11,151 bases of DNA from Gemmatimonadota bacterium. Its GTDB lineage: Bacteria; Gemmatimonadota; Gemmatimonadetes; Gemmatimonadales; Gemmatimonadaceae. The notes beneath the pieces were generated by a model, which saw nothing but the letters and a program-made list of their open reading frames with translations, was not told the origin of the DNA and searched no databases. A program made the position numbers and the translations under genes. Of the stretch, positions 1-11,151 are shown in pieces (positions within the stretch are counted from its first letter, which is position 1; every line of letters starts with the position of its first letter). The stretch covers positions 1 to 11,151 of the forward strand of contig JANMLN010000038.1 of the NCBI GenBank assembly GCA_031372565.1, in the 5' to 3' direction.

Positions 1-1298
1 GTCGAGAAGAACGGCTCGAAGATCGCCGGGAGCACTTCGGGCGCGATCCCCGTGCCGTCATCGGAGACGTAGAACCGCACGAAGTGCGCGTCCGGGTGAC
101 TCGGTGCGGCGGTGGATGCCACGACAACGTCGATCCGGCCATTGTGTGCCGTGGCATCGCGCGCATTGACCACCAGATTGATCAGCACCTGCTCGAACTG
201 CGTGGCGTCCATCTGCACGAGCTGCGGCGTCGATGCGACACTGATCGTCAGCGTCCGATCCTTGCCCACCAGACGCTTGAGCAGCTCACCGAGCTTGTTG
301 ACCTGATGGCTCACGTCGAAACGGGTGACCTCCTGGGGCGCCTGACGTGCGAACGCGAGGAGTTGCTTCGTCAACTCCTGCCCGCGCTTGGTCGCGCCCA
401 GAATCACGTCGAGGTCCGCGCTCGCCTCTCCGGGCGGCGCACTGCGCGCCGACTCCGCGCTCATGCCGATCACCGCGAGCAGGTTGTTGAAGTCGTGCGC
501 AATGGTCCCCGACATGCGGCCGACGCTCTCAAGCCGCTGCGAGCTCGCGAGCGCCACTTCGGCGAGTCCCATCTGTTCGGTCTGGCGGACGATGTTCGCG
601 CGCTCATCATCGAGCACGGCGACGATCAAGAGCACGCTCACCACCACCAGCAGGAAGACCTGCAGGAAGATGACGGGCGGGCCGAAGCTTGGCACGGCAC
701 CATCGCGCACCGCGAGCGCCGCCGTGATCACGTTGACCACACTGCGCACGGCGAGCGCAGCGAACGCGATTCCCACGAGTCTGACGGCGAAGCTGCGCCC
801 CGACCGGCGTCGCCAGATCGAATAGGCGTACCACGCCAGACCTCCTGAGAGGCCGATCGACAGCACCGACCCGATCGCCCCGATCATGGCTGTGCCGCGC
901 ACTCCCGGGGCTTCGTTGAGCGCGAGACTGCACACCAGCCCACCGACACCGATCGCCCACAGGCGTCGTGCCGACGGAAGCGCGCGATCCGTCCGACCAG
1001 CGAGCAGTCGGATGATGTGCCATCCCAGTGCGCTGCTGAGCAAGGGACTCAGCGGCACCACGCACGCGGCGATCACGGACGGCGCGTGGTCGGGAAGCCC
1101 GACCGCTGAGGCCGCGACGCTCGCCCAGAGCAGCGCAGCCCCGACAGTCTGGACCGCGAAGAAGGCCGTCGCGGCCCGCATCACGGGTCGCCCGAACGTC
1201 ACCGTCAGGCCGATGCACGAGATCATCGTGCCCGCAGACAGTGCCGTCTGCAGGACCCAGATCAGGACGAGGCTTGGCGGTGAGATGTTCAGGTCCAC
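1..1298 (-). CDS. Membrane-bound sensor histidine kinase (NtrB/CckA-like HisKA + HATPase), 3' end truncated by the window edge
   Basis: Translated by hand; absent from the ORF track because its stop lies outside the window. Probable GTG at 1298, and the frame stays open to position 1. The N-terminal ~230 aa contain about 6-7 hydrophobic segments. These are followed by the H-box QRLESVGRMSGTIAHDFNNLL, N-box QVLINLVVNARDA, G1 VSDDGTGI and F-box IFEPFFS. The start codon is less certain than the product. Confidence 0.92.
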   Translation of the reverse strand, partial: MDLNISPPSLVLIWVLQTALSAGTMISCIGLTVTFGRPVMRAATAFFAVQTVGAALLWASVAASAVGLPDHAPSVIAACVVPLSPLLSSALGWHIIRLLAGRTDRALPSARRLWAIGVGGLVCSLALNEAPGVRGTAMIGAIGSVLSIGLSGGLAWYAYSIWRRRSGRSFAVRLVGIAFAALAVRSVVNVITAALAVRDGAVPSFGPPVIFLQVFLLVVVSVLLIVAVLDDERANIVRQTEQMGLAEVALASSQRLESVGRMSGTIAHDFNNLLAVIGMSAESARSAPPGEASADLDVILGATKRGQELTKQLLAFARQAPQEVTRFDVSHQVNKLGELLKRLVGKDRTLTISVASTPQLVQMDATQFEQVLINLVVNARDATAHNGRIDVVVASTAAPSHPDAHFVRFYVSDDGTGIAPEVLPAIFEPFFS

Positions 1299-1305
1299 GT
1301 TGGGT

Positions 1306-1926
1306 TCAACGCTCCGCCCGCTTCGCCAGCGTGCCGCGCACATCCTCCAGCGTTCCACCCGTCGCGCGCAGCGCCACCAAGGCGTGGTACAGCAGATCAG
1401 CCGCCTCCTCGACGGCGCGCTCCCGATCGCCGTCGGCACACGCCGTCACCAGCTCGGCGGCCTCCTCCCCCACCTTCTTGAGCCGCAGATTCCGATCGGC
1501 CAGCAACTTGGCGGTGTAGCTCCCGCTCGCCTCCACCGCCCCGGCACGTTCCGCAATCGTCCGATCAAGCGCGCCGAGCGCGTCCGCCGCCACGTCCCCA
1601 AAGCACGTGAGCGCACCGGTATGACACGCCGGCCCCGCCGGCCGGACCCGCGCCAACACCGCGTCCCCGTCGCAATCCGCGATCAACGACACCACCCGCT
1701 GCACATGCCCGCTCGTGCCGCCCTTGTGCCACAACCCGCGCGTCCGCGACCGATAGTGCATCTCACCGGTCGCCACCGTCTGCTCCAACGCCTCCCGATC
1801 CGCGGCCGCGACCATCAATACCTGGCCCGTCACCACGTCCTGCGCGATGACGGTCACCGTCCCGCCGCCCTTCGCAAAATCGAGCGCGTCCAGGTCGAAC
1901 GACGCCAACTGTGATTTAGTATTCAT
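1306..1926 (-). CDS. hisIE: Bifunctional phosphoribosyl-AMP cyclohydrolase / phosphoribosyl-ATP pyrophosphatase
   Basis: HisI motifs LWHKGGTSGH, DCDGD and PACHTG..TCF; HisE motifs SYTAKLL, KKVGEEAAE and EEAADLLYH. Start moved from 1998 (inside hisN) to ATG 1926. Confidence 0.96.
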   Translation of the reverse strand: MNTKSQLASFDLDALDFAKGGGTVTVIAQDVVTGQVLMVAAADREALEQTVATGEMHYRSRTRGLWHKGGTSGHVQRVVSLIADCDGDAVLARVRPAGPACHTGALTCFGDVAADALGALDRTIAERAGAVEASGSYTAKLLADRNLRLKKVGEEAAELVTACADGDRERAVEEAADLLYHALVALRATGGTLEDVRGTLAKRAER

Positions 1927-1942
1927 ATGATACGAAATGTCG

Positions 1943-2716
1943 TCAGCTCGAGAACGGGACGCCCAGCGCGGCCCGCGCCACGCCAGCCAGCGCTGCATTC
2001 GTGGCGATCGCGTCGGCGCCCCATGCCGTCGCGCGCCCCTGCCAATCGGTAAAGACGCCGCCCGCTTCGGTCACGATCGGCTGCACGGCGGCCGAATCCC
2101 ACGGGTTCATCATCGGATCCACCATCACGTCCGCACGCCCGGTCGCGAGCAACACGTACCCGTAGCAGTCGCCCCACGAGCGTACCAAGCCGGCCTGCGA
2201 CGCCAGCGACTCCCACCCGACGCGCTTGGCCGCGATGCCCCCCATCCGCTCGTCGGTCGTGAGCACGGTGGCGGCGCCAAGCGTATCAACCGCGCTCACC
2301 CGACAGCGCGTGTCGTTCCACCAACACCCCGCCCCCAGCGCGGCCACGACCAGCTCATCGACCGGCGGACAATACGTCGCCCCCGCCAGCACTGTATCGC
2401 CCTCGGCGACTGCCACCAGCGTGCCCCACAACGGCACGCCGCGCACGAAGCTCTTCGTGCCGTCAATCGGGTCGAGAATCCAGCGACGGCGCGCCTCGGG
2501 GCGCGTTGCGCCGAACTCCTCGCCCAGAATGCCATCATCGGGAAAGCGCGCACTGATCCACTCGCGCGCCAGCTGCTCCGCCCCGCGATCGGCGATGGTC
2601 ACCGGTGAGCCATCGCCCTTGGTCTCCACCGCGACCCCCTGCCGCCAGTGACGCAGCGCAAAGGCGCCCGCCAGCCGCGCCACCTCTGCCACCGCCTGCA
2701 CGAGCGACTCGCTCAT
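1943..2716 (-). CDS. hisN: Histidinol-phosphate phosphatase, inositol monophosphatase family
   Basis: IMPase motifs [34 protein letters not shown] and WDSAA. It sits inside a his operon whose HisB lacks a phosphatase domain. ATG 2716 overlaps the hisF stop (ATGA). Confidence 0.92.
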
Positions 2717-3474
2717 GCGGCCGCCCGAACCGGGAGCCCCTCCAAGCGCACGGCATCCTTGCATGCCTGCACTGTGTGCACACCGTCATGCACGATTCCC
2801 GCCACGAGCGCAGCATCAGCGCCGCCCGCACGAAGTGCATCGACCAGATGCGCCGGCTCGCCCGCACCGCCCGACGCGATCACCGGCACGGGAACGACAT
2901 CGGCAATCGCCCGCGTCAGCGCCAGATCATACCCGGTGCGCGCTCCGTCGTGATCGATGCTGGTCAGCAGCAACTCGCCCGCGCCACGCGCCACGCACTC
3001 CTGCGCCCACGCGATGGCATCGAGCTCGGTGCGCGTGCGCGCGCCATGCGTCCACACCATCCACCGATCCCCTTCTCGGCGCGCATCAATACTCGCCACG
3101 ACACACTGCGCACCGAACCGTTCGGCGCTCTCCGTCAACAGCTCGGGCCGCGCGACGGCCGCCGAATTGATCGCCACCTTGTCGGCCCCGGCGCGCAGCA
3201 CGCGACCGACATCGTCCACGGTCCGCACCCCGCCACCAACCGTCAGCGGAATGAACAGTCGCTCGGCAGTCCGCCGCACTGTATCAAGCAGCGTGCTCCG
3301 ACCGTCCGCGCTCGCCGAGATGTCAAGGAAGACGATCTCGTCCGCGCCCTCGGCTTCGTAGCGCTCAGCCAGCAGGGCGGGATCGCCAATCTCCCGCAGG
3401 TCGACAAAGCGCGTGCCTTTCACGACGCGACCATCACGAACGTCGAGGCAAACGATGATTCTACGCGTCAGCAT
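2713..3474 (-). CDS. hisF: Imidazole glycerol phosphate synthase cyclase subunit
   Basis: [52 protein letters not shown] and PVIASGGAG; 253 aa. Confidence 0.98.
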
Positions 3475-3504
3475 AAGAACACTTAAAGTGCATCATAGCG
3501 ACAA

Positions 3505-4041
3505 TCACTTGATCACCGCCGAAACGGCGCCCTTGGTCGAGAACACCGTACCCGTCTCCACAAAGGCATCACGGAGCGCAAAGCCCAGCGCCTTGAACGC
3601 CGCCTCGACGATATGGTGGCGATCGGTTCCACGCAGCACGCGCAGGTGCACCGTCGCCTTGGCGTGCTCCGCGAAGCTGCGCATCCAGTGGTCGTACAGC
3701 GAGCTGGGCAGCGGCCCGCGATAGAAGAACCGGCCGCCAGCGTCCAGGGCGCAGTGCACCAGCGCCTCGTCCATGGGCATTGACCGATCGCCGAACCGCG
3801 CCGCCGTCGGCGGAAGCTCAGCCGCCACGGCAGCCCCCACCGCGATGCCCACATCCTCGATCAGGTGATGGCGAAGGTCGCCCGAGGCGGTCACGCGGAG
3901 GTCGAGCCCCGCATAGCGCGCGAACGTCACCAGCATGTGGTCCAGAAAGGGCTCGCCCGTCTGCACCACCGCCGCGCCACTCCCGCGCACCAACTCCACG
4001 AGAATCTTCGTTTCGCGCGTCTCGCGCGTGATCGTGCTCAT
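3505..4041 (-). CDS. hisB: Monofunctional imidazoleglycerol-phosphate dehydratase
   Basis: RETRETKI, FLDHML, the two metal motifs DLRHHLIED and DRHHIVEAAFKA, MDEAL, and C-terminal STKG. The ATG overlaps the hisA stop. Confidence 0.97.
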   Translation of the reverse strand: MSTITRETRETKILVELVRGSGAAVVQTGEPFLDHMLVTFARYAGLDLRVTASGDLRHHLIEDVGIAVGAAVAAELPPTAARFGDRSMPMDEALVHCALDAGGRFFYRGPLPSSLYDHWMRSFAEHAKATVHLRVLRGTDRHHIVEAAFKALGFALRDAFVETGTVFSTKGAVSAVIK

Positions 4042-4751
4042 GCCGAGAACTCCTCTGCGATCACGCGCGGATCGAGCGCGCCGGTATAGAGCGCCATGCC
4101 AAGCACACAGCCGGCGACCCCGCGGTCCGCCAACTCGTGCAGATCGGTCAGCGTCCCGATCCCTCCACTCGCCAACACGGGGGCTTCGGTCGCCTCGGCC
4201 ACGTCCTGCATCAGCGGCAGGTCAGTGCCCGTCATGAGCCCTTCCTTGTGCACCGCCGTCACCAGGAAGCCGGCGATCGGCAATCGGTCCAGCTCCTCGA
4301 CCATGTCCAGCACGAGGCGCGACGTCGTCTCGGTCCACCCGCGCGTCACCACGCGCCGTTCGCGCACATCACACGCCACGATCAACTGCTGCGGGTAGCG
4401 CAGCGTCATCTCTTCGAACCACCACGGGTCCTCGAGCGCGCGCGTGCCGACGATGATCCGGTCGGCGCCCGCGGTGAGCAGCTGCTCGATCCGCTCCGCC
4501 GACCGCACGCCACCACCGACCTGCACATCCACGTCCACTTCGCGCAGAATCTCGGCGATCACATCGGCGTTGGACCCGCGACCGAACGCGGCATCGAGAT
4601 CCACCACGTGCAGCCGCGTGAACCCGTACGCGACCCAGTTCCGCGCGACCGCCACCGGATCCTCCAGTCGCACGCGCTCCTCGGTCAACTCCCCTCCCAC
4701 GAGCTGCACGCAGGCCCCCTCGCGCAGATCCACTGCGGGTATCGCAATCAT
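4038..4751 (-). CDS. hisA: ProFAR isomerase
   Basis: IPAVDL, LHVVDLDAA, VQVGGGVRS and VLASGGI; 237-aa TIM-barrel size. The ATG overlaps the hisH stop. Confidence 0.96.
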   Translation of the reverse strand: MIAIPAVDLREGACVQLVGGELTEERVRLEDPVAVARNWVAYGFTRLHVVDLDAAFGRGSNADVIAEILREVDVDVQVGGGVRSAERIEQLLTAGADRIIVGTRALEDPWWFEEMTLRYPQQLIVACDVRERRVVTRGWTETTSRLVLDMVEELDRLPIAGFLVTAVHKEGLMTGTDLPLMQDVAEATEAPVLASGGIGTLTDLHELADRGVAGCVLGMALYTGALDPRVIAEEFSA

Positions 4752-5347
4752 GCTGCGGCCTCCTCGACCCAGGCGCGCACGAAGGCCAGCCCCGCGCGCG
4801 AACTCTTTTCGGGATGAAACTGCACGCCAACCGATCGTCCCGCACGCATCACCGCCGGAAAACGATCACCTTCGTGGGAACTCCACGCCATCACATCCTG
4901 CACACGCGTCGGGCGCACCACATAGCTGTTCGCGTAGTAGGCGACATCCAGCATGGCGGCGGCAAGGAGCGGCTCACGCGGCTCGTCCAGGGTGTTCCAG
5001 CCGATCTGGGGCACACGCGTCGCACGCAACCGCTCGACACGTCCGCCAAAGAGACCGAGGCCCAGGCCGTCGCCTTCGTCACTCCCCTCCGCCATGAGCT
5101 GCAGCCCAAGGCAGATCCCGAGGATCGGCGTGTCGCGCTGTGCCGCCGCACGCACCACCTCGAGGCCAGCGAAGAGCCGCTCTGCGGCAGGCGCGAACGC
5201 ACCCACCCCTGGCAACACGATCGCGCGCGCATCGCCGAGCGCGACCGGATCGTGCTCAAGCTGCACGGTGGCGCCGCCCGCTTCCAGCGCCTTCACCAAT
5301 GAGTGCAGGTTGCCGGCGCCGTAGTCGAACACCGTCACCGATGTCAT
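4748..5347 (-). CDS. hisH: Imidazole glycerol phosphate synthase glutaminase subunit
   Basis: DYGAGNLHS, LPGVGAF, nucleophile LGICLGLQL, VPQIGWN and QFHPEKS. The true start is ATG 5347, overlapping the hisC stop. Confidence 0.97.
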   Translation of the reverse strand: MTSVTVFDYGAGNLHSLVKALEAGGATVQLEHDPVALGDARAIVLPGVGAFAPAAERLFAGLEVVRAAAQRDTPILGICLGLQLMAEGSDEGDGLGLGLFGGRVERLRATRVPQIGWNTLDEPREPLLAAAMLDVAYYANSYVVRPTRVQDVMAWSSHEGDRFPAVMRAGRSVGVQFHPEKSSRAGLAFVRAWVEEAAA

Positions 5348-6393
5348 GCGCCGACCTCGTGCGCAGCCTCGACGACGCGCGCAAGCGTGGACCACGGCGC
5401 CGACGCGATGCGCACGGCGGGGCCGATGACCGGCAGGTCGGCGAAGACCCGCACCAACACGCCGCGCGCCGAACAGGCCGCGGAGAAGGCCGCCGGATTG
5501 CGCACGGGCACACAGAGGAAGTTCGCGGCCGATGGCAGCGGCGCAAAGCCCAGCGCACGGAGTGCATCGGCCAACCGATCACGCACCGCCACCGCCTCGC
5601 GGGCATGGGCCTGCATCCAGGGCACGTCGTGGATGATTGCGGCCATCGCCGCGCGCTCGGCCATCAGGTTCACGGTGTAGGGACCACGCGCGCGCTCGAT
5701 GTTCGCGATCACCTGCGCGTGCGCGACGCCGTAGCCCACCCGCAATCCGGCGAGGCCGAACGACTTCGAGAAGGTGCGCGTCACCAGCACGTTCGCACGG
5801 GATGCCGCCTCGTCGATCAGCGACTCGCCGGCGTAATCGGCATACGCCTCGTCGACGACCACCAAACCGCGCGCCTCGTCAATGACGCGCAGCAGCTCCG
5901 CGCGCGGCACGAGCGTGCCGGTCGGATTGTTCGGTGAACAGAGATAGGTGACCGCGGCACGCTCGGCGAGCAACGCCTCGGCATCGAACGGCCCCGATGC
6001 CGTGATCGACACGGGCCGTGCGGCGAGCCCGAGCATCGCTGCGAACACGGGCGTCATCACGAACGTCGGCGCCATCCAGGTGATGGACGCGCCCGGACCA
6101 GCGTAGGCGTTGAAGGCGCAACGGAGGACTTCGTCAGACCCGCATCCGGTCACGATCTGTTCGGGCGCGACGCCATGATGCGTCGCGAGCGCCGCCTTGA
6201 GCGGTTCGCTGTACATCGATGGATAGCGCCACGACTCAGGCGCCGCGTTGGCGAGCGCGGAAACGGCGGACGGTGCGGCACCCCACACATTGGTGGAGTC
6301 GGAGAGGTCCACCCCTGCGGTGGCCCGCGCCGGTTCGTAGCGCGGCACGGCGGCGAGCCCCGCGCGCGGGGCGAGTGGTGCCGGTGTGCTCAC
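5344..6393 (-). CDS. hisC: Histidinol-phosphate aminotransferase
   Basis: GCGSDE, LCSPNNPTG, VVDEAY, PLP-lysine motif RTFSKSFGLAGLRVGY and PSAANF. Start reassigned to GTG 6393, which overlaps the hisD stop (GTGA) and is preceded by GGGAGG. Confidence 0.96.
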   Translation of the reverse strand: MSTPAPLAPRAGLAAVPRYEPARATAGVDLSDSTNVWGAAPSAVSALANAAPESWRYPSMYSEPLKAALATHHGVAPEQIVTGCGSDEVLRCAFNAYAGPGASITWMAPTFVMTPVFAAMLGLAARPVSITASGPFDAEALLAERAAVTYLCSPNNPTGTLVPRAELLRVIDEARGLVVVDEAYADYAGESLIDEAASRANVLVTRTFSKSFGLAGLRVGYGVAHAQVIANIERARGPYTVNLMAERAAMAAIIHDVPWMQAHAREAVAVRDRLADALRALGFAPLPSAANFLCVPVRNPAAFSAACSARGVLVRVFADLPVIGPAVRIASAPWSTLARVVEAAHEVGA

Positions 6394-7718
6394 GCCCCCT
6401 CCCATGCGCGCGCGGCCGCGGCATGCCCCGGCAACCCCTCCGCATCGGCGAGCACTCCGGTGTCGGTCGCGAGGCGCGCGGCCGCCTCGGGCGTCACACG
6501 CTGCCAGGAGGTCCACCGCATGAACGATTCGGTCGAGAGACCCGAGAAGGAGCGCGCGAGCCCGCCCGTCGGCAGCACATGGTTGGCACCCGTGAGATAG
6601 TCACCGAATGCCACCGAGCTCGACGCGCCGACAAACACGGCACCCTGCCGACGCAGTCGCGGCAAGACCGCATCCGCATCGGCGACGGCCAGCAGCAGAT
6701 GTTCGGCCGCGAACTCGTTCGCGAAGGCGACCGCTTCGTCGATAGATTGGACTGCGAGGAGCGCGCCGCGCGCCGCGAGCGCCTGGCGAACGATCGTCTT
6801 CCGACCGGCCGCGCGGACGAGCCCTGCGAGCGCTTCGTCGACGGCGTTGATGGCGTGATCGTCGCCGATCACGAGCGCGACGACGCTCGCGTCGGGATCA
6901 TGCTCCGCCTGTGCGAGCATCTCGCGGGCCACGAGCAACGAGGACGTGGCCGCGTCGGCGATGACGAGCACTTCACTCGGGCCGGCGGGGCTGTCGATAC
7001 CCACGATGGACGAGACCTGCAGCTTGGCTTCGTTCACGAAGGCATTGCCCGGGCCCACAATCCGCTCGACACGTGGCACCGACGCGGTGCCGTACGCCAT
7101 CGCACCGATCGCCTGCGCGCCGCCAATCGCAAAGACGCGATGCGCCCCGGCCAGCGCGGCTGCCGCGAGTACCGTTGCCGCCGGGAACCCATCGGGCCCC
7201 GGCGGCGAACAGACGACGATCTCGCGCACACCGGCCACCACCGCCGGCACGACCCCCATCAGCACCGAACTCGGGTACGACGCGCGGCCCCCCGGCGCGT
7301 ACACCCCCACGCAGTCGAGCGGATCAGGGCGACGGCCGATTGTGACCCCCGATTCGGTTTCGACGACGACCTCGCGCGGCCTCGCGGCCTCGCTCGCCAC
7401 CTTGAGGTTGCGGACCGCATGCTCGAGCGCGGCGCGGAGCTCGGGGGCCAACCCCGCCAACGCCGCGTCGATCCTGGCGCGCGGGACTTCGACGGCCGCA
7501 ATCTTCACGAGATCGAGCTCGCGCGTGAGCGCCACGAGCGCGTCATCGCCGCGATCCCGCACGTACTCGAGGATGGCGGCCACCTGCGTCCGCACGGCGT
7601 CGTCGTCACGCGCGGCTGCGCGGCTCAGGATGGCGCGGCGGTCCTCGTCGCGCAGGCCGGTGAGCCGTCCGTGCGCGCGCAGGGGGACGCGCGAGATCTC
7701 GTCGTCGGAAGGAATCAT
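6390..7718 (-). CDS. hisD: Histidinol dehydrogenase
   Basis: VGVYAPGG, IGGAQAI, IVGPGNAFV, IDSPAGPSEV, AQAEHD, AAEHL, GDYLTGANHVLPT and EGLPGH; the Zn-binding and catalytic motifs look intact. The ATG overlaps the hisG stop. Confidence 0.98.
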   Translation of the reverse strand: MIPSDDEISRVPLRAHGRLTGLRDEDRRAILSRAAARDDDAVRTQVAAILEYVRDRGDDALVALTRELDLVKIAAVEVPRARIDAALAGLAPELRAALEHAVRNLKVASEAARPREVVVETESGVTIGRRPDPLDCVGVYAPGGRASYPSSVLMGVVPAVVAGVREIVVCSPPGPDGFPAATVLAAAALAGAHRVFAIGGAQAIGAMAYGTASVPRVERIVGPGNAFVNEAKLQVSSIVGIDSPAGPSEVLVIADAATSSLLVAREMLAQAEHDPDASVVALVIGDDHAINAVDEALAGLVRAAGRKTIVRQALAARGALLAVQSIDEAVAFANEFAAEHLLLAVADADAVLPRLRRQGAVFVGASSSVAFGDYLTGANHVLPTGGLARSFSGLSTESFMRWTSWQRVTPEAAARLATDTGVLADAEGLPGHAAAARAWEGA

Positions 7719-8578
7719 GGCGTCAACCGCTCGATGCGGGTCACGAGAATGCCTTCGCCGCCCAGTGCCTTCAGGTCGGCGATCGTGCGATAGATGGACT
7801 TGGCCGCGACCACCGCGTGCACGGCCACATGCGACCCACCGTTCATGATGTCGATGACGGTCGGCCCGTTGAGGCCCGGGAACACGGCGCGCACCTGGTC
7901 GAGGGCGGCACGCGGCACATTCGCCATCACGTACCGCTGTCCGCGCGCCCGCAGCACGGAGGCGAGCGCGGTCGAGAGGCCGTCGAGCGACGAGCGGCGC
8001 GCCGGGTCGGCGAGCGCGGCCGGTGACGTGATGAGCCGAGCGGACGACTCCAGGACGGTCGCCACCTCGCGGAGCCCGTTGACCTTGAGCGTCGAACCGG
8101 TGGAGGTCAGGTCAACCACGATATCCGCGATCCCGATGTGCGGCGCGATCTCGGCGGCGCCAGACACCGGCACGATGTCGACCTTGACCCCGATCGCGGC
8201 GAAGTAGCGGGCCGCCAAGCGTGGGAACACGGTCGCCACCCGCGTACCGGCAGGAAGCGCCGTCAGGGGCGCGACCGACCCGTCGTCGCGTGTCGCGACC
8301 ACTAGCCGGCAGCGCCCGAACTCGAGGTCCAGCAACTCCTCGAGCGGCCGAGCGGACTCCTCGACCAGATCGCGCCCGGTCACCCCGGCGTCAGCCGCAC
8401 CATCGGCCACGAACTCCGGGATGTCCTGCGCCCGCACGAAGAGCGCCTCGAATTCGCCCCCCAGCGAGGCGGTCAGGGCGCGTTCACCGCGGCCCCGGAC
8501 TTCGAGGCCGGCGTCCGCCAGCAGCTCGCGGGTGTCGTCGGACAGGCGGCCCTTGTTGGGCAGGGCGATCTTGAGCAT
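7715..8578 (-). CDS. hisG: ATP phosphoribosyltransferase, long form with C-terminal regulatory domain
   Basis: IALPNKGRL, VRAQDIP, GVTGRD and EIAPHIGIADIVVDLTSTGSTLKVNGL. The 287 aa include the C-terminal domain (PGLNGPTV..LKALGGEGILV), so HisZ is not needed. Confidence 0.98.
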   Translation of the reverse strand: MLKIALPNKGRLSDDTRELLADAGLEVRGRGERALTASLGGEFEALFVRAQDIPEFVADGAADAGVTGRDLVEESARPLEELLDLEFGRCRLVVATRDDGSVAPLTALPAGTRVATVFPRLAARYFAAIGVKVDIVPVSGAAEIAPHIGIADIVVDLTSTGSTLKVNGLREVATVLESSARLITSPAALADPARRSSLDGLSTALASVLRARGQRYVMANVPRAALDQVRAVFPGLNGPTVIDIMNGGSHVAVHAVVAAKSIYRTIADLKALGGEGILVTRIERLTP

Positions 8579-8619
8579 GGCAGGGACAGTGCGTGCGAGA
8601 GGGGAGAAACTGGGGGGGC

Positions 8620-8657
8620 AGAAACGACGACGGCCCGTCCTCTGGAGGGACGGGCCG
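8620..8657 (-). terminator. Attenuator terminator hairpin of the his leader
   Basis: Perfect 10-bp inverted repeat CGGCCCGTCC (8631-8640) / GGACGGGCCG (8648-8657) with a 7-nt loop. On the minus-strand RNA it is followed by an imperfect U-tract, UCGUCGUUUCU. It lies between the leader peptide and hisG. Confidence 0.85.
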
Positions 8658-8730
8658 GGGAGGCGGGCTTGAGCCCGCGATGCGGATTCGGACTCTCGCG
8701 CTCTAGGCGCGCCCGCGCACTCCCCGGCCC
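8652..8730 (-). promoter_or_regulatory. Antiterminator helix of the his attenuator
   Basis: CTCCCCGGCCC (8720-8730, leader codons 16-20) is the exact reverse complement of GGGCCGGGGAG (8652-8662). The helix extends by 6 bp (8711-8716 with 8663-8668) after a 3-nt bulge. It takes up 6 nt (8652-8657) of the terminator's 5' arm. Confidence 0.85.
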
Positions 8731-8777
8731 AGGTGGCCGTGGTGGTGATGCGGATGCGAGTGGCAGCGAGAAGTCAT
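8703..8777 (-). CDS. hisL: his operon leader peptide, 24 aa, MTSRCHSHPHHHHGHLGRGVRGRA
   Basis: ATG 8777 to TAG 8703, with 7 His codons among codons 6-15 (four consecutive). It lies directly upstream of hisG on the same strand and overlaps the antiterminator. Confidence 0.92.
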   Translation of the reverse strand: MTSRCHSHPHHHHGHLGRGVRGRA

Positions 8778-8785
8778 AGCCTCAA

Positions 8786-8815
8786 AGCGTAGCGTGGGAG
8801 TACCCTCTTGCGCAA
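8786..8815 (-). promoter_or_regulatory. Putative sigma70-type promoter of the his leader/operon
   Basis: The minus strand reads TTGCGC (8815-8810) - 18 nt - TACGCT (8791-8786) - 8 nt - ATG of hisL. Confidence 0.55.
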
Positions 8816-8881
8816 GCGTTGGCTATCTTTTTGATGCTCGCGGGGCCCCGCGAGCATGACGAATCAACTAGACAGGCTTTT

Positions 8882-8887
8882 AGGAGG
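8882..8887 (+). promoter_or_regulatory. Shine-Dalgarno sequence of the blue copper protein gene
   Basis: AGGAGG, 9 nt before ATG 8897. Confidence 0.75.
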
Positions 8888-8896
8888 CCTCCAGAC

Positions 8897-9412
8897 ATGC
8901 GTTTCAACGGTTTCGCGCTCGTGACGAGTGCGCTTGTGCTCGCCGCTTGCGGCGGTGAGAAGAAGGCGGAGACGACTCCGGCGGCTGAGCCGGCAGCGGC
9001 GTCCCCGGCCATGGCAGCCCCGGCGGCTCCGGCTGCTGCAGCTCCGGCGGCTGGTGCGGCGGCGCCGATCACCGGCAAGACCGTCGAGGTCAAGATGATC
9101 GGCGACGACAAGGGCTATCGCTTCGAGCCCGCCAACATCACGATCGCCTCGGGCGACGGCATCAAGTTCCTCGTGGTCTCCGGCGGCCCGCACAACGTCG
9201 CGTTCGACGGCACCAAGCTCTCCGCCGAAGCCAAGGCGCAGCTCGACGCGAGCCTCGGCGCTGACAAGATGGCCGAGCTCTCCAGCGCGATGAAGATGAA
9301 CGCCGGTGACGTCATCACCGTGTCGTTCGGCGGCATGAAGCCGGGCGAGTACCCCTACAACTGCACGCCGCACCTCGCGATGGGCATGAAGGGCGTCATC
9401 ACCGTCAAGTAA
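8897..9412 (+). CDS. Lipoprotein with a plastocyanin/azurin-family (type 1 copper, cupredoxin) domain
   Basis: Signal peptide MRFNGFALVTSALVLAAC with an LAAC lipobox, then an Ala/Pro-rich linker, then FEPANITI..GD, GPHNVAF (His ligand) and GEYPYNCTPHLAMGMKGVITVK (Cys-x2-His-x4-Met ligands). Start 8897 is supported by the SD; 171 aa. Confidence 0.95.
   Translation: MRFNGFALVTSALVLAACGGEKKAETTPAAEPAAASPAMAAPAAPAAAAPAAGAAAPITGKTVEVKMIGDDKGYRFEPANITIASGDGIKFLVVSGGPHNVAFDGTKLSAEAKAQLDASLGADKMAELSSAMKMNAGDVITVSFGGMKPGEYPYNCTPHLAMGMKGVITVK
8979..9067 (+). repeat. Imperfect CCGGCGGCT-type low-complexity repeats encoding a PAA-rich linker
   Basis: Encodes PAAEPAAASPAMAAPAAPAAAAPAAGAAAP, with several copies of CCGGC(G/A/T)GC. 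Confidence 0.6.
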
Positions 9413-9427
9413 GCCATTCAGGCTCAC

Positions 9428-11005
9428 ATGAGCGGTTCACCGGGGGCGGGAGCGCATGGCGCTTCCGCCCCCGGATTTTTTTCCGGTGGCGCACCGTGGT
9501 GGCGTGCGCGCGCGCGCAACGCGTTGCGCCATCCCGTGCGCATCGGAGTCGTCGCCGGCGCCGTCTTTCTGCTCACGCTGCTCGCGCTCATCGTCGTTCC
9601 CGCCGGCCAGCGCCGCGCCGCCGAGCAGCGACCGGAAGCACAGCGCTACCTCGATACGCTGCCCATTCTCGCGCGGCAGCACGATGTCGAGCGACGGCGC
9701 GAACGCGCCACGAAGGCACTCGATGCGTCGCGCCTCGCGCTCGCCGCGGCTGACAGCGCCGACTTTGCGGCAGCAGAACGTCCGCGGTCGACCGCGTCGC
9801 CCGGTACCGACACGATCGCGGCACTCGGGCGCGAACTCTCGCGACTCATCGCACGGGCAGAACGGGCGCCGCTCCCCGCGACCTATCGCGACCTCGCCGC
9901 TGCGCGTGCGTTCGCTGGTGACGCGCGCATCGCTCCCTTGCTCGCGACACTCGACACGATCGAGCGGGCGCAGCGCGCGTATGGCCGCCGTCCGGAACTC
10001 GACTCGGGGTACGTGGCGCTCACCGAACGCGCCCGGGCCGTCGGGGCCACGCTCGATGCGTTGGCCCGCGATCGCCGCGGCGCGCTGCGCGGCGATGCCC
10101 CTGAGGACACACTCCAGCAGCGCGCGCGGCTCGATACGCTCGGCCGGGAGGTCGAGGCCACCGAGCGGCAGTTGGTGCTCGCGCGCCAGGTCAACACACG
10201 CGCCCAAGCGGTCCGCGCCGCTGCGCGCGAGGTCGCGAACGTCACGGCGCCTCCGCTGCTCATGCTCGTCGCGGCGGTGGCCCTCGGTCTCGCGCTCGGG
10301 GCAGCCGCGTCGCTCGTACTCGAACTCGCCGACCCGTACTTCGCGGGAGACGCCGACGCATCACTCGTCCTCGGCGCGAGCGTGGTGGGCCTCCTGCCCG
10401 AGACCGTTGATGGAACGCTCCGCGACGCGGCAGACCGGCTCATCGGGCGTGTGCTCACACCGATGGCGCCAGGCGCGCGCCTCGCACTGGTCGCGCTCGA
10501 CGGACAACAGGCCGCGCACGTGGCGGTCGCCCTGGCGACCGCGGTGGCGGCCAGCGGTCGCGCCGTGCTGCTGCTCGACACCGATACGCAGAGCGCTGCG
10601 GCCGCCGTGCTGTTGCGACGCCCGGCCGTGCCCGGTATCACCGATGTACTCGCCCGCGGGCTCACCTGGTCGCAAGCGCTGCATCCGCACATCGGCAGTC
10701 ATGCGCCGCCGCTCGACGTCATCCCGCCGGGCACCTCGCTCAAGTTCGCGCCGGGCACCGTGGCCATGGACCATGCCGCCGAGGCGCTCGGCCATCTCGC
10801 GGACAGCTATGATCTCACGCTCGTGACCGTCACCCCTGCCGACACGCCGATTGCCGAGGCACTGCTCGTGCCTGCGCGCGTGACCGAGGCGCTGATCGTG
10901 GCGGTACCGGGGGAGACGCGGCTCGCAGCGCTGCGCCGGACGCGCGAACGGCTCGCCCTTCGCGGCGTGTCGCTTGTGGGCGTGGTCGTCCTCGAGCGCT
11001 CGTGA
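9428..11005 (+). CDS. Wzc/Wzz-like polysaccharide co-polymerase-fold membrane protein with a degenerate BY-kinase (CpsD/CapB-like) domain
   Basis: TM1 (IGVVAGAVFLLTLLALIVVP), a helical or coiled-coil middle, TM2 with Pro and GxxxG (PPLLMLVAAVALGLALGAAASLVLELADP), then kinase-fold remnants GRAVLLLDTD, PGITDVL, LDVIPPGT, YDLTLV and LVGVVV. The start is uncertain: ATG 9428, TTG 9524 or GTG 9536. Confidence 0.72.
   Translation: MSGSPGAGAHGASAPGFFSGGAPWWRARARNALRHPVRIGVVAGAVFLLTLLALIVVPAGQRRAAEQRPEAQRYLDTLPILARQHDVERRRERATKALDASRLALAAADSADFAAAERPRSTASPGTDTIAALGRELSRLIARAERAPLPATYRDLAAARAFAGDARIAPLLATLDTIERAQRAYGRRPELDSGYVALTERARAVGATLDALARDRRGALRGDAPEDTLQQRARLDTLGREVEATERQLVLARQVNTRAQAVRAAAREVANVTAPPLLMLVAAVALGLALGAAASLVLELADPYFAGDADASLVLGASVVGLLPETVDGTLRDAADRLIGRVLTPMAPGARLALVALDGQQAAHVAVALATAVAASGRAVLLLDTDTQSAAAAVLLRRPAVPGITDVLARGLTWSQALHPHIGSHAPPLDVIPPGTSLKFAPGTVAMDHAAEALGHLADSYDLTLVTVTPADTPIAEALLVPARVTEALIVAVPGETRLAALRRTRERLALRGVSLVGVVVLERS
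9440..9482 (+). terminator. Rho-independent terminator after the copper protein gene
   Basis: 16-bp stem CCGGGGGCGGGAGCGC (9440-9455) / GCGCTTCCGCCCCCGG (9459-9474) with one G-U pair and a 3-nt loop, followed by A and T7 (9476-9482). It starts 27 nt after the TAA. Confidence 0.9.
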
Positions 11006-11022
11006 GGCGCGTGCGCGGCCGG

Positions 11023-11028
11023 TAGATT
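11023..11028 (+). promoter_or_regulatory. Putative -10 element (TAGATT) of a leaderless transcript
   Basis: TANNNT hexamer 7 nt before ATG 11036 in an otherwise GC-rich spacer, with no SD. Confidence 0.5.
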
Positions 11029-11035
11029 CCGCCGC

Positions 11036-11151
11036 ATGTGGGCCGATACTCTCCTGGCTGCCGAGCAGGCGCACCTGCTTCGGCTCGCGGTCTGGGCCGC
11101 CGGATCGGTGTTGCTGGGGACCGCGCTGCTGGCCGGGCTCCGGCTCCGGGG
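11036..11151 (+). CDS. Hypothetical membrane protein, 5' fragment (MWADTLLAAEQAHLLRLAVWAAGSVLLGTALLAGLRLR...)
   Basis: ATG 30 nt after the previous stop, open to the window edge, with a hydrophobic helix and GC-rich codon usage. Confidence 0.7.
   Translation, partial: MWADTLLAAEQAHLLRLAVWAAGSVLLGTALLAGLRLR

Follow-up and report, generated by a model that had tools for sequence, protein, structure and literature searches.

The his locus and its leader

The window analysed here is the whole stretch of 11,151 nucleotides from a Gemmatimonadota bacterium of the family Gemmatimonadaceae (GenBank assembly GCA_031372565.1, contig JANMLN010000038.1, positions 1 to 11,151 of the forward strand). Its G+C content is 69.6%, and it carries a histidine biosynthesis (his) operon on the minus strand. 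The first gene of the operon is hisG, and in Pfam the same-strand genes after it are assigned in the order hisD, hisC (as a class I/II aminotransferase), hisH, hisA, an imidazoleglycerol-phosphate dehydratase gene, hisF, an inositol-monophosphatase-family gene and hisIE. The HisG protein is a long-form ATP phosphoribosyltransferase with the C-terminal regulatory domain. The inositol-monophosphatase-family gene may plausibly encode a HisN-type histidinol-phosphate phosphatase. A short upstream open reading frame (uORF) rich in His codons lies ahead of hisG. With the genes from hisG to hisIE following on the same strand, this uORF heads a complete his operon. The uORF and the RNA downstream of it are interpreted here as a ribosome-mediated (leader-peptide) transcription attenuator of the operon, with an estimated probability of about 85%.

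The uORF runs from the ATG at 8777 to the TAG at 8705-8703, and its translation is MTSRCHSHPHHHHGHLGRGVRGRA. The stop codon is separated by 124 nt from hisG, which starts at 8578. The original prediction, which was made by a model from the letters of the DNA and a list of open reading frames, described a frame of 24 codons with seven His codons in the pattern H-S-H-P-HHHH-G-H. The frame list and the translation agree with this description, histidine being encoded at codons 6, 8, 10-13 and 15. The exact leader peptide of the window is absent from a collection of 15 billion proteins. In exact look-ups of nine leader peptides none was present in this collection, and the leader peptides therefore appear to be unannotated.

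Competing helices in the leader RNA

Folding of the region 8800-8579 (minus strand) gave a minimum-free-energy structure of three elements, namely a long imperfect hairpin, a 6-bp hairpin and a 10-bp hairpin (Table 1). In the long hairpin, which is designated the anti-antiterminator, the His-codon region 8758-8735 pairs with 8729-8708. The alternative fold is the antiterminator, in which 8731-8720 pairs with 8662-8651 through 11 Watson-Crick pairs and one U-G pair, followed by pairing of 8716-8711 with 8668-8663. The energy of this duplex is -42.0 kcal/mol. It consumes 7 nt of the 5' arm of the terminator hairpin and the entire 3' arm of the middle hairpin, and the two folded states are therefore mutually exclusive. 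A 10-bp terminator, an 11+6-bp antiterminator and a 6-bp middle hairpin had been predicted from the letters; all three are reproduced by folding, and their coordinates were right within one base. Between the terminator hairpin and the hisG start there are 53 nt, with no overlap of the two.

For the 30-nt segment after the His codons, considered in the window alone, the 11-nt complementary run was matched in 111 of 20,000 shuffles. The evidence from the window taken by itself is only moderately persuasive.

Table 1. Positions of the leader elements and neighbouring features in the window
Feature	Position	Strand	Remarks
-35-like hexamer TTGCGC	8810..8815	-	most relatives have TTGACN here
-10-like hexamer TACGCT	8786..8791	-	8 nt before the uORF ATG
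Leader peptide ORF	8703..8777	-	24 codons plus TAG, 7 His codons
Anti-antiterminator ('1:2'), long imperfect hairpin	8691..8775	-	His codons pair with the antiterminator arm and the ORF end
His-codon cluster (codons 6-15)	8733..8762	-	putative sensor and 5' strand of the anti-antiterminator hairpin
Antiterminator 5' arm	8711..8731	-	8731-8720, 3-nt bulge, 8716-8711; inside codons 16-23
Middle 6-bp hairpin GCGGGC-UCAA-GCCCGC	8663..8678	-	8678-8673 with 8668-8663, -11.2 kcal/mol
Antiterminator 3' arm	8651..8668	-	shares 8657-8651 with the terminator
Terminator hairpin, 10-bp stem, 7-nt loop	8631..8657	-	8657-8648 with 8640-8631, -21.0 kcal/mol folded alone
Weak U-tract	8617..8630	-	UCGUCGUUUCUGCC, longest T-run 3
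hisG, long-form ATP phosphoribosyltransferase, first operon gene	7715..8578	-	PF01634 1.6e-49, PF08029 1.7e-21
Inositol-monophosphatase-family gene	1943-2764	-	between hisF and hisIE, within the his operon
Plastocyanin/azurin-family cupredoxin gene	8897-9412	+	divergent from the his leader; lipoprotein-like N-terminus MRFNGFALVTSALVLAACGG
Strong terminator-like hairpin and T-run	9440-9474	+	after the cupredoxin gene; terminator scan

Conservation of the leader ahead of hisG

To collect relatives, 20 HisG proteins were aligned and the alignment was scanned against genomes, of which each species contributed one. This matched 599 stretches, 585 of which encode a HisG relative, and the analysis uses the best 80 of these 585. 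The 80 loci comprise 67 from Gemmatimonadota or unclassified metagenome-assembled genomes and 13 from Myxococcaceae/Archangiaceae, with Corallococcus, Hyalangium and Pyxidicoccus among them. Two loci (L044 and L053) have less than 130 nt upstream of hisG. The other 78 have at least 200 nt and are testable, and together with the window they form a family alignment of 79 leaders. The organism had been judged not to be enteric from the DNA alone, which is correct: it belongs to the Gemmatimonadota, and the closest HisG relatives are named Gemmatimonadaceae or Gemmatimonadetes.

Conservation of His-rich uORFs upstream of hisG in relatives had been singled out beforehand as the point on which the prediction depended. 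A uORF with 4-8 His within ten residues was found in the 400 nt before hisG in all 78 testable loci, and at least five His within ten residues were reached in 75 of them. Across the 79 leaders the peptides have 17-31 amino acids and 4-9 His (median 7), and the distance from the uORF stop to hisG is 77-174 nt. The background was taken from stop-to-stop frames in the 987,442 strand-bases of all loci. Among them 110 frames have at least five His per ten amino acids, and 76 of these fall within the 300 nt before hisG. The nhmmer DNA profile built from the leaders of the 78 relatives, with the window left out, gave a single match in the window at 8785-8619 (minus strand, E=4.8e-14). When the closest relatives L001 and L002 were omitted too, the leader of the window was still matched (E=6.9e-13). 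The element in the window is thus a member of a homologous family of his leaders in Gemmatimonadota and Myxococcota.

The choice of His codons in the leaders differs from that in the genes. In the 79 leaders CAC occurs 289 times and CAT 249 times (46% CAT), compared with 217 CAC and 45 CAT (17% CAT) in the hisG frames of the leader loci. The CAT excess in the leader uORFs may reflect pairing constraints or slower decoding.

Structure and covariation across the family

The alignment was examined for the terminator and for two helices of the anti-antiterminator, P1 and P2. Standard pairs are formed in 89.8% of the 1,801 cells of these three helices, compared with 19-47% in controls with slid partners. 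Changes on both sides are present at 14 of the 23 pairs. The covariation score is 0.214, with 0.126 for shuffled alignments (reached in 0 of 500) and at most 0.139 for slid partners. The terminator stems are GC-rich and have 9-16 bp across the family; 99% of their cells are paired, with both-sided change at 4 of 9 pairs. In P1 the last His codons and the GGCC after them pair with the antiterminator arm (88% paired, double changes at 4 of 7 pairs). In P2 the CAY-GYG-CAY codons pair with the end of the ORF (about 80% paired, double changes at 5 of 6 pairs); one of its pairs is C-G in 38 leaders, U-G in 15 and U-A in 14. The covarying helices expected in relatives were thus found, as both the terminator and the hairpin between the His codons and the antiterminator arm show compensatory changes.

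The antiterminator columns are paired in 76.9% of cells compared with at most 48.8% in slid controls. This helix was also examined by a duplex-swap test, in which the post-His ORF segment of each leader was combined with the terminator-arm region of each leader and the energies were compared. The native combinations had a mean of -29.08 kcal/mol and the swapped ones -27.24 kcal/mol, and 0 of 5000 permutations reached the native mean. More stable than their own shuffles were 77 of the 79 native duplexes between ORF arm and terminator arm, and the duplex of the window (-41.7 in this test) was strongest with the window's own partner. The conserved CGGG core of the antiterminator arm lies in frame 2 in 56 leaders, in frame 0 in 13 and in frame 1 in 10, and the encoded residues differ. 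The constraint therefore acts on the RNA and not on the peptide.

Inspection of the alignment by eye showed a hairpin of differing sequence at the position of the middle hairpin in many relatives. One clade (L014, L023, L025, L028, L031, L042, L046, L061 and L066) has a terminator stem extended by GCGGCG...CGCCGC, and in the same clade the antiterminator arm in the ORF is extended in parallel (GUCGUC). The GUCGUCG found after the terminator of the window (8630-8624) resembles the 3' extension of this clade but is without a partner.

Promoter and probable leaderless start

The promoter-like hexamers ahead of the uORF are separated in the window by a spacer of 18 nt (TTGCGC to TACGCT). Ahead of the first His codon, 70 of the 79 leaders carry the pattern TTGACN-N17/18-TANNNN, of which all 987 kb contain only 82 matches. 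In the window, L001 and L002 the hexamer is TTGCGC and the spacer 18 nt, so that these three fall outside the TTGACN pattern; a consensus promoter scan did not find the leader promoter in the window. The first in-frame start codon lies 6-10 nt past the -10 element in 69 of the 70 patterned leaders, and exactly 7 nt past it in 39. Of 78 leaders examined for TANNNT, 65 have one, and in 56 of these the motif precedes the chosen start by 6-9 nt. Transcription usually starts about 7 nt after the -10 element. Combined with the spacing between this element and the ATG, this points to a leaderless or nearly leaderless RNA, from which the uORF is probably translated.

Proposed mechanism

The sequences themselves show the elements, their mutual exclusivity, their conservation with covariation and their linkage to hisG. 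From these elements we infer the following course of events, which covers the transcription start, translation of the uORF, stalling, termination and the response to histidine. Transcription would begin at the uORF ATG or a few bases from it, as suggested by the promoter geometry. If no translation took place at all, the terminator state would be the default. When charged tRNA-His is plentiful, the ribosome would pass the seven His codons and reach the TAG. Behind it the His-codon region would re-pair with the adjacent downstream segment (8730-8720 onward) and sequester this segment from the 5' arm of the terminator. With the arm sequestered, the 10-bp terminator 8657-8631 would form and RNA polymerase would halt ahead of hisG. 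When charged tRNA-His is scarce, the ribosome would stall at the early or middle His codons and mask the 5' strand of the anti-antiterminator hairpin. The released segment 8731-8711 would pair with 8668-8651 once the latter is transcribed, both the terminator and the middle hairpin would be blocked, and read-through into hisGDC and the following genes would result. The 5' strand of the protective hairpin would be the His-codon cluster itself, and only early and middle His stalls would be expected to release this arm of the antiterminator. Since the stop codon is well downstream, termination under histidine sufficiency would rely on the hairpin re-forming behind the ribosome and not on the ribosome covering the arm.

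Ribosome stalls were modelled with a 28-nt mask around the A-site. At equilibrium the predicted pairing probability of the terminator in the window falls from 0.99 to 0.05 with a stall at the fourth or fifth His codon. It is 0.40-0.66 with stalls at the first three His codons, 0.84 at the sixth, 0.99 at the seventh and 0.46 at the stop codon. In the masked minimum-free-energy folds of the window, a stall at His codon 6, 11 or 12 gives the full antiterminator, and a stall at His-15 or at the stop codon gives the terminator. The earlier proposal that stalling on His codons frees the antiterminator thus stands for the early and middle His codons but not for His-15, where the modelled fold keeps the terminator.

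A second model used transcripts cut just before the 3' arm of the terminator, and the 5' arm was counted as captured if it was paired to ORF bases at p>0.5. Such pairing was predicted in 79 of 79 leaders at the best His stall and in 75 of 79 with the ribosome at the first His codon, compared with 33 of 79 without a ribosome. The modelled transcripts are consistent with attenuation, although the separation of the states is not clean.

Relation to known attenuators

The leader was searched against Rfam, including the His_leader (RF00514) and T-box models, and no match at gathering score was found in the window or in the loci of seven relatives. Within 8400-9000 His_leader was absent even at E up to 10, and the only leader-type matches were to Thr_leader, whose gathering score of 55 exceeds the 15.3 and 13.9 bits obtained. 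Neither Pfam nor NCBIfam contained a family matching the peptides of the window and of four relatives, with E values up to 10 admitted. The original view that the leader does not resemble Escherichia coli hisL agrees with this lack of His_leader and leader-peptide matches. It had also been suggested that the attenuator is an independently evolved or undescribed family. The second part holds for the databases and open-access literature searched. The first part goes beyond the result, which is a separate sequence family common to two phyla. Full-text searches of an open-access library turned up no such attenuator of Gemmatimonadota or Myxococcota. Vitreschak et al. (2004) and Lopatovskaya et al. 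(2010) reportedly predicted attenuators in several non-enteric groups, and a prior mention is possible.

The E. coli hisL peptide contains seven His codons in a row, whereas those of the window are interrupted (H-S-H-P-HHHH-G-H). In both systems a short uORF with seven His codons stands directly before hisG. Enterobacterial hisL is further described as having its His codons within a hairpin that restrains the antiterminator, with the antiterminator and an intrinsic terminator excluding each other, and the predicted logic of a stall leading to read-through is the same (PMC9413887). The leader of the window differs in that it shows no detectable sequence, structure or peptide-family match to hisL. 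Its stop codon lies 8-9 codons past the His cluster, so a terminating ribosome leaves the antiterminator arm uncovered. Its start is probably leaderless and without a Shine-Dalgarno sequence, and its hosts are Gemmatimonadota and Myxococcota.

According to the account in PMC9413887, gamma-proteobacteria have established His attenuators, and such elements have been predicted in three lineages of Firmicutes; a case in the Bacillus cereus group is described in PMC2965389. Taxa with hisG or hisZ leaders are listed in PMC4833913, where a conference paper on Actinobacteria is cited. The Firmicutes attenuators (hisZ/hisS paralogues of the B. cereus group, Peptostreptococcaceae and Erysipelotrichales) are likewise lineage-specific His-rich uORFs with terminator and antiterminator hairpins; as described, they are comparative-genomics predictions and are not matched by RF00514 (PMC9413887, PMC2965389). 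They differ in having 3-5 consecutive His codons (PMC9413887), and they belong to other phyla and other sequences, a distinction drawn from their published descriptions. Nothing on leaderless starts is reported for them.

For a leaderless sensory uORF, the closest known parallel is the mycobacterial system of polycysteine small open reading frames (sORFs), the 'Cys ribulon' (10.1101/834739). As reported there, the operon opens with a leaderless sORF in which the cognate amino acid is abundant, and ribosome stalling in the tract remodels the structure of the downstream RNA. The leaderless start is experimental in that system and deduced here from promoter geometry. The mycobacterial sORFs act on translation, whereas the structure under control here is shaped like an intrinsic terminator and lies 53 nt ahead of hisG. 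Exposure of the following gene's ribosome-binding site, as in the mycobacterial type, does not fit a hairpin at this distance from hisG that is followed by a U-tract in most relatives. The leader represents an established type of switch; its sequences form a separate family that is uncatalogued and common to two phyla, and its start is probably leaderless.

Features flanking the leader

Upstream of the leader lies the divergent cupredoxin gene (Table 1). By tblastn, relatives of this gene are present in 53 loci, and in the 12 matches listed they are upstream of hisG and on the opposite strand. A perfect 24-nt palindrome (ATGCTCGCGGGG/CCCCGCGAGCAT) is located at 8835-8858, between the leader promoter and the cupredoxin gene. 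This palindrome could be an operator or a 5'-untranslated-region hairpin, and in Rfam it gave only a chance-level match (Rubella_3, E=2.3).

Evidence against the attenuator and alternative explanations

Several observations weigh against the interpretation as a transcription attenuator. The sequence after the terminator of the window is GUCGUCGUUUCU; it contains no U-run longer than 3, and the longest run begins 7 nt past the stem. A T-run of at least 4 directly follows the terminator in 76 of the 79 leaders, and the window is among the only three without one. A consensus terminator scan did not call the attenuator terminator site of the window. The window's own copy of the attenuator may terminate weakly, its tail being degenerate compared with those of the relatives. 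The whole-leader folding energy of the window is also ordinary (z = -1.55), and 14 of 200 shuffles fold equally well. No Shine-Dalgarno sequence lies at a normal distance before the uORF ATG, and translation of the uORF hangs on the leaderless start, which would itself explain this lack.

The family-wide analyses contain points of the same kind. The covariation of the antiterminator columns (0.147) is indistinguishable from that of one slid control (0.143); this weakness is attributed to the nearly invariant core of the helix. RNAalifold applied to the full 79-leader alignment recovered the terminator alone. In 45 of 79 truncated transcripts the antiterminator pairing still occurs with a ribosome at the stop codon. 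For most relatives, equilibrium folding of the full-length leader retains the terminator under every mask (median probability 0.95-0.98), and masking switches the window and no more than a minority of the relatives. Folding of this kind was for this reason rejected as a demonstration of the switch. If the attenuator works as proposed, the decision must then be kinetic, as in classic systems.

One alternative is that the uORF senses His-tRNA while the output is a change in Rho access, in the stability of the mRNA or in the translation of hisG, the hairpin then acting as a processing or stability element. The weak U-tract of the window is in keeping with it, as is the lack of an obvious Shine-Dalgarno sequence in the C/U-rich 53 nt (8579-8630) between the terminator and the hisG ATG, and a translational output is known for the mycobacterial sORFs (10.1101/834739). 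However, a T-run of at least 4 after a GC-rich stem of 9-16 bp, found in 76 of 79 leaders, is the standard form of an intrinsic terminator. The hairpin of the window does not overlap the hisG start, and the stop-to-hisG distances of 77-174 nt place the start codon outside the switch. A non-terminator output is accordingly considered unlikely. Control of the operon by another RNA sensor (a His T-box or a riboswitch) or by a protein repressor, with the uORF being secondary, appears less likely still. T-box and HisR control of his genes is described for other phyla (PMC9413887), and the palindrome upstream of the promoter is unexplained, but no Rfam family reached its gathering score in the window or the seven relatives' loci, and the matches within 8400-9000 at E up to 10 are at chance level.

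The His-rich peptide might be a product with a function of its own, for instance as a small metal-binding peptide beside the copper protein gene, its position before hisG being incidental. The composition of the peptide and the cupredoxin gene as a divergent upstream neighbour conserved in 53 loci would suit such a role. Against this, the conserved bases outside the His run fall in three frames and encode different residues, the length (17-31 amino acids) and sequence of the peptide are variable, and no peptide family is matched in Pfam or NCBIfam. Moreover, the uORF is on the his strand ahead of hisG in 78 of 78 testable loci, Myxococcaceae included, and a role as product is regarded as very improbable. 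Chance occurrence of an ORF and of helices in DNA of 70% G+C, before an operon regulated in an ordinary manner, would be compatible with the fold z of only -1.55 for the whole leader and with the ease with which GC-rich sequence forms helices, the 11-nt run recurring in 111 of 20,000 shuffles. It is contradicted by family-wide conservation, enrichment, homology and covariation, and its probability is close to negligible. The ribosome-mediated his attenuator, as originally proposed, is supported by structure, conservation and covariation.

Spread between phyla and significance

The leader family is shared by the 13 Myxococcaceae/Archangiaceae loci (L010, L015, L029, L035-L037, L040, L045, L056, L057, L059, L064 and L075), all of which have a homologous leader. 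Their HisG proteins have 70-74% identity to that of the window, a similarity like that of other Gemmatimonadaceae. Their HisD proteins have about 62% in 12 of the 13 loci and 52% in one, compared with a median of 61.7% for other Gemmatimonadaceae. The similar HisG and HisD proteins and the homologous leader in two phyla suggest that the his operon was transferred together with its attenuator between Gemmatimonadota and Myxococcota.

A wider proposal is put forward tentatively, as one that may somewhat more readily fail than hold in full. The uncatalogued his attenuator family would combine promoter, leaderless sensory uORF and terminator switch within some 200 nt, as one compact unit. Loading of the first ribosome would take place at an AUG at the very 5' end of the nascent RNA, and transcription initiation, the pioneer ribosome and the termination decision would thus be coupled without a ribosome-binding site. 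This unit would have passed between Gemmatimonadota and Myxococcota together with the his operon.

The understanding of attenuation itself is not changed by this leader family. It adds a regulatory annotation to the his operon of two poorly studied, mostly uncultured soil phyla, and the 79-leader alignment could seed a new RNA family where Rfam, Pfam and NCBIfam see nothing. The homologous leader and similar HisG and HisD proteins in two phyla provide a concrete example of a cis-regulatory switch that has apparently travelled with its operon. The family also offers a natural test case for amino-acid attenuation from a probably leaderless uORF.

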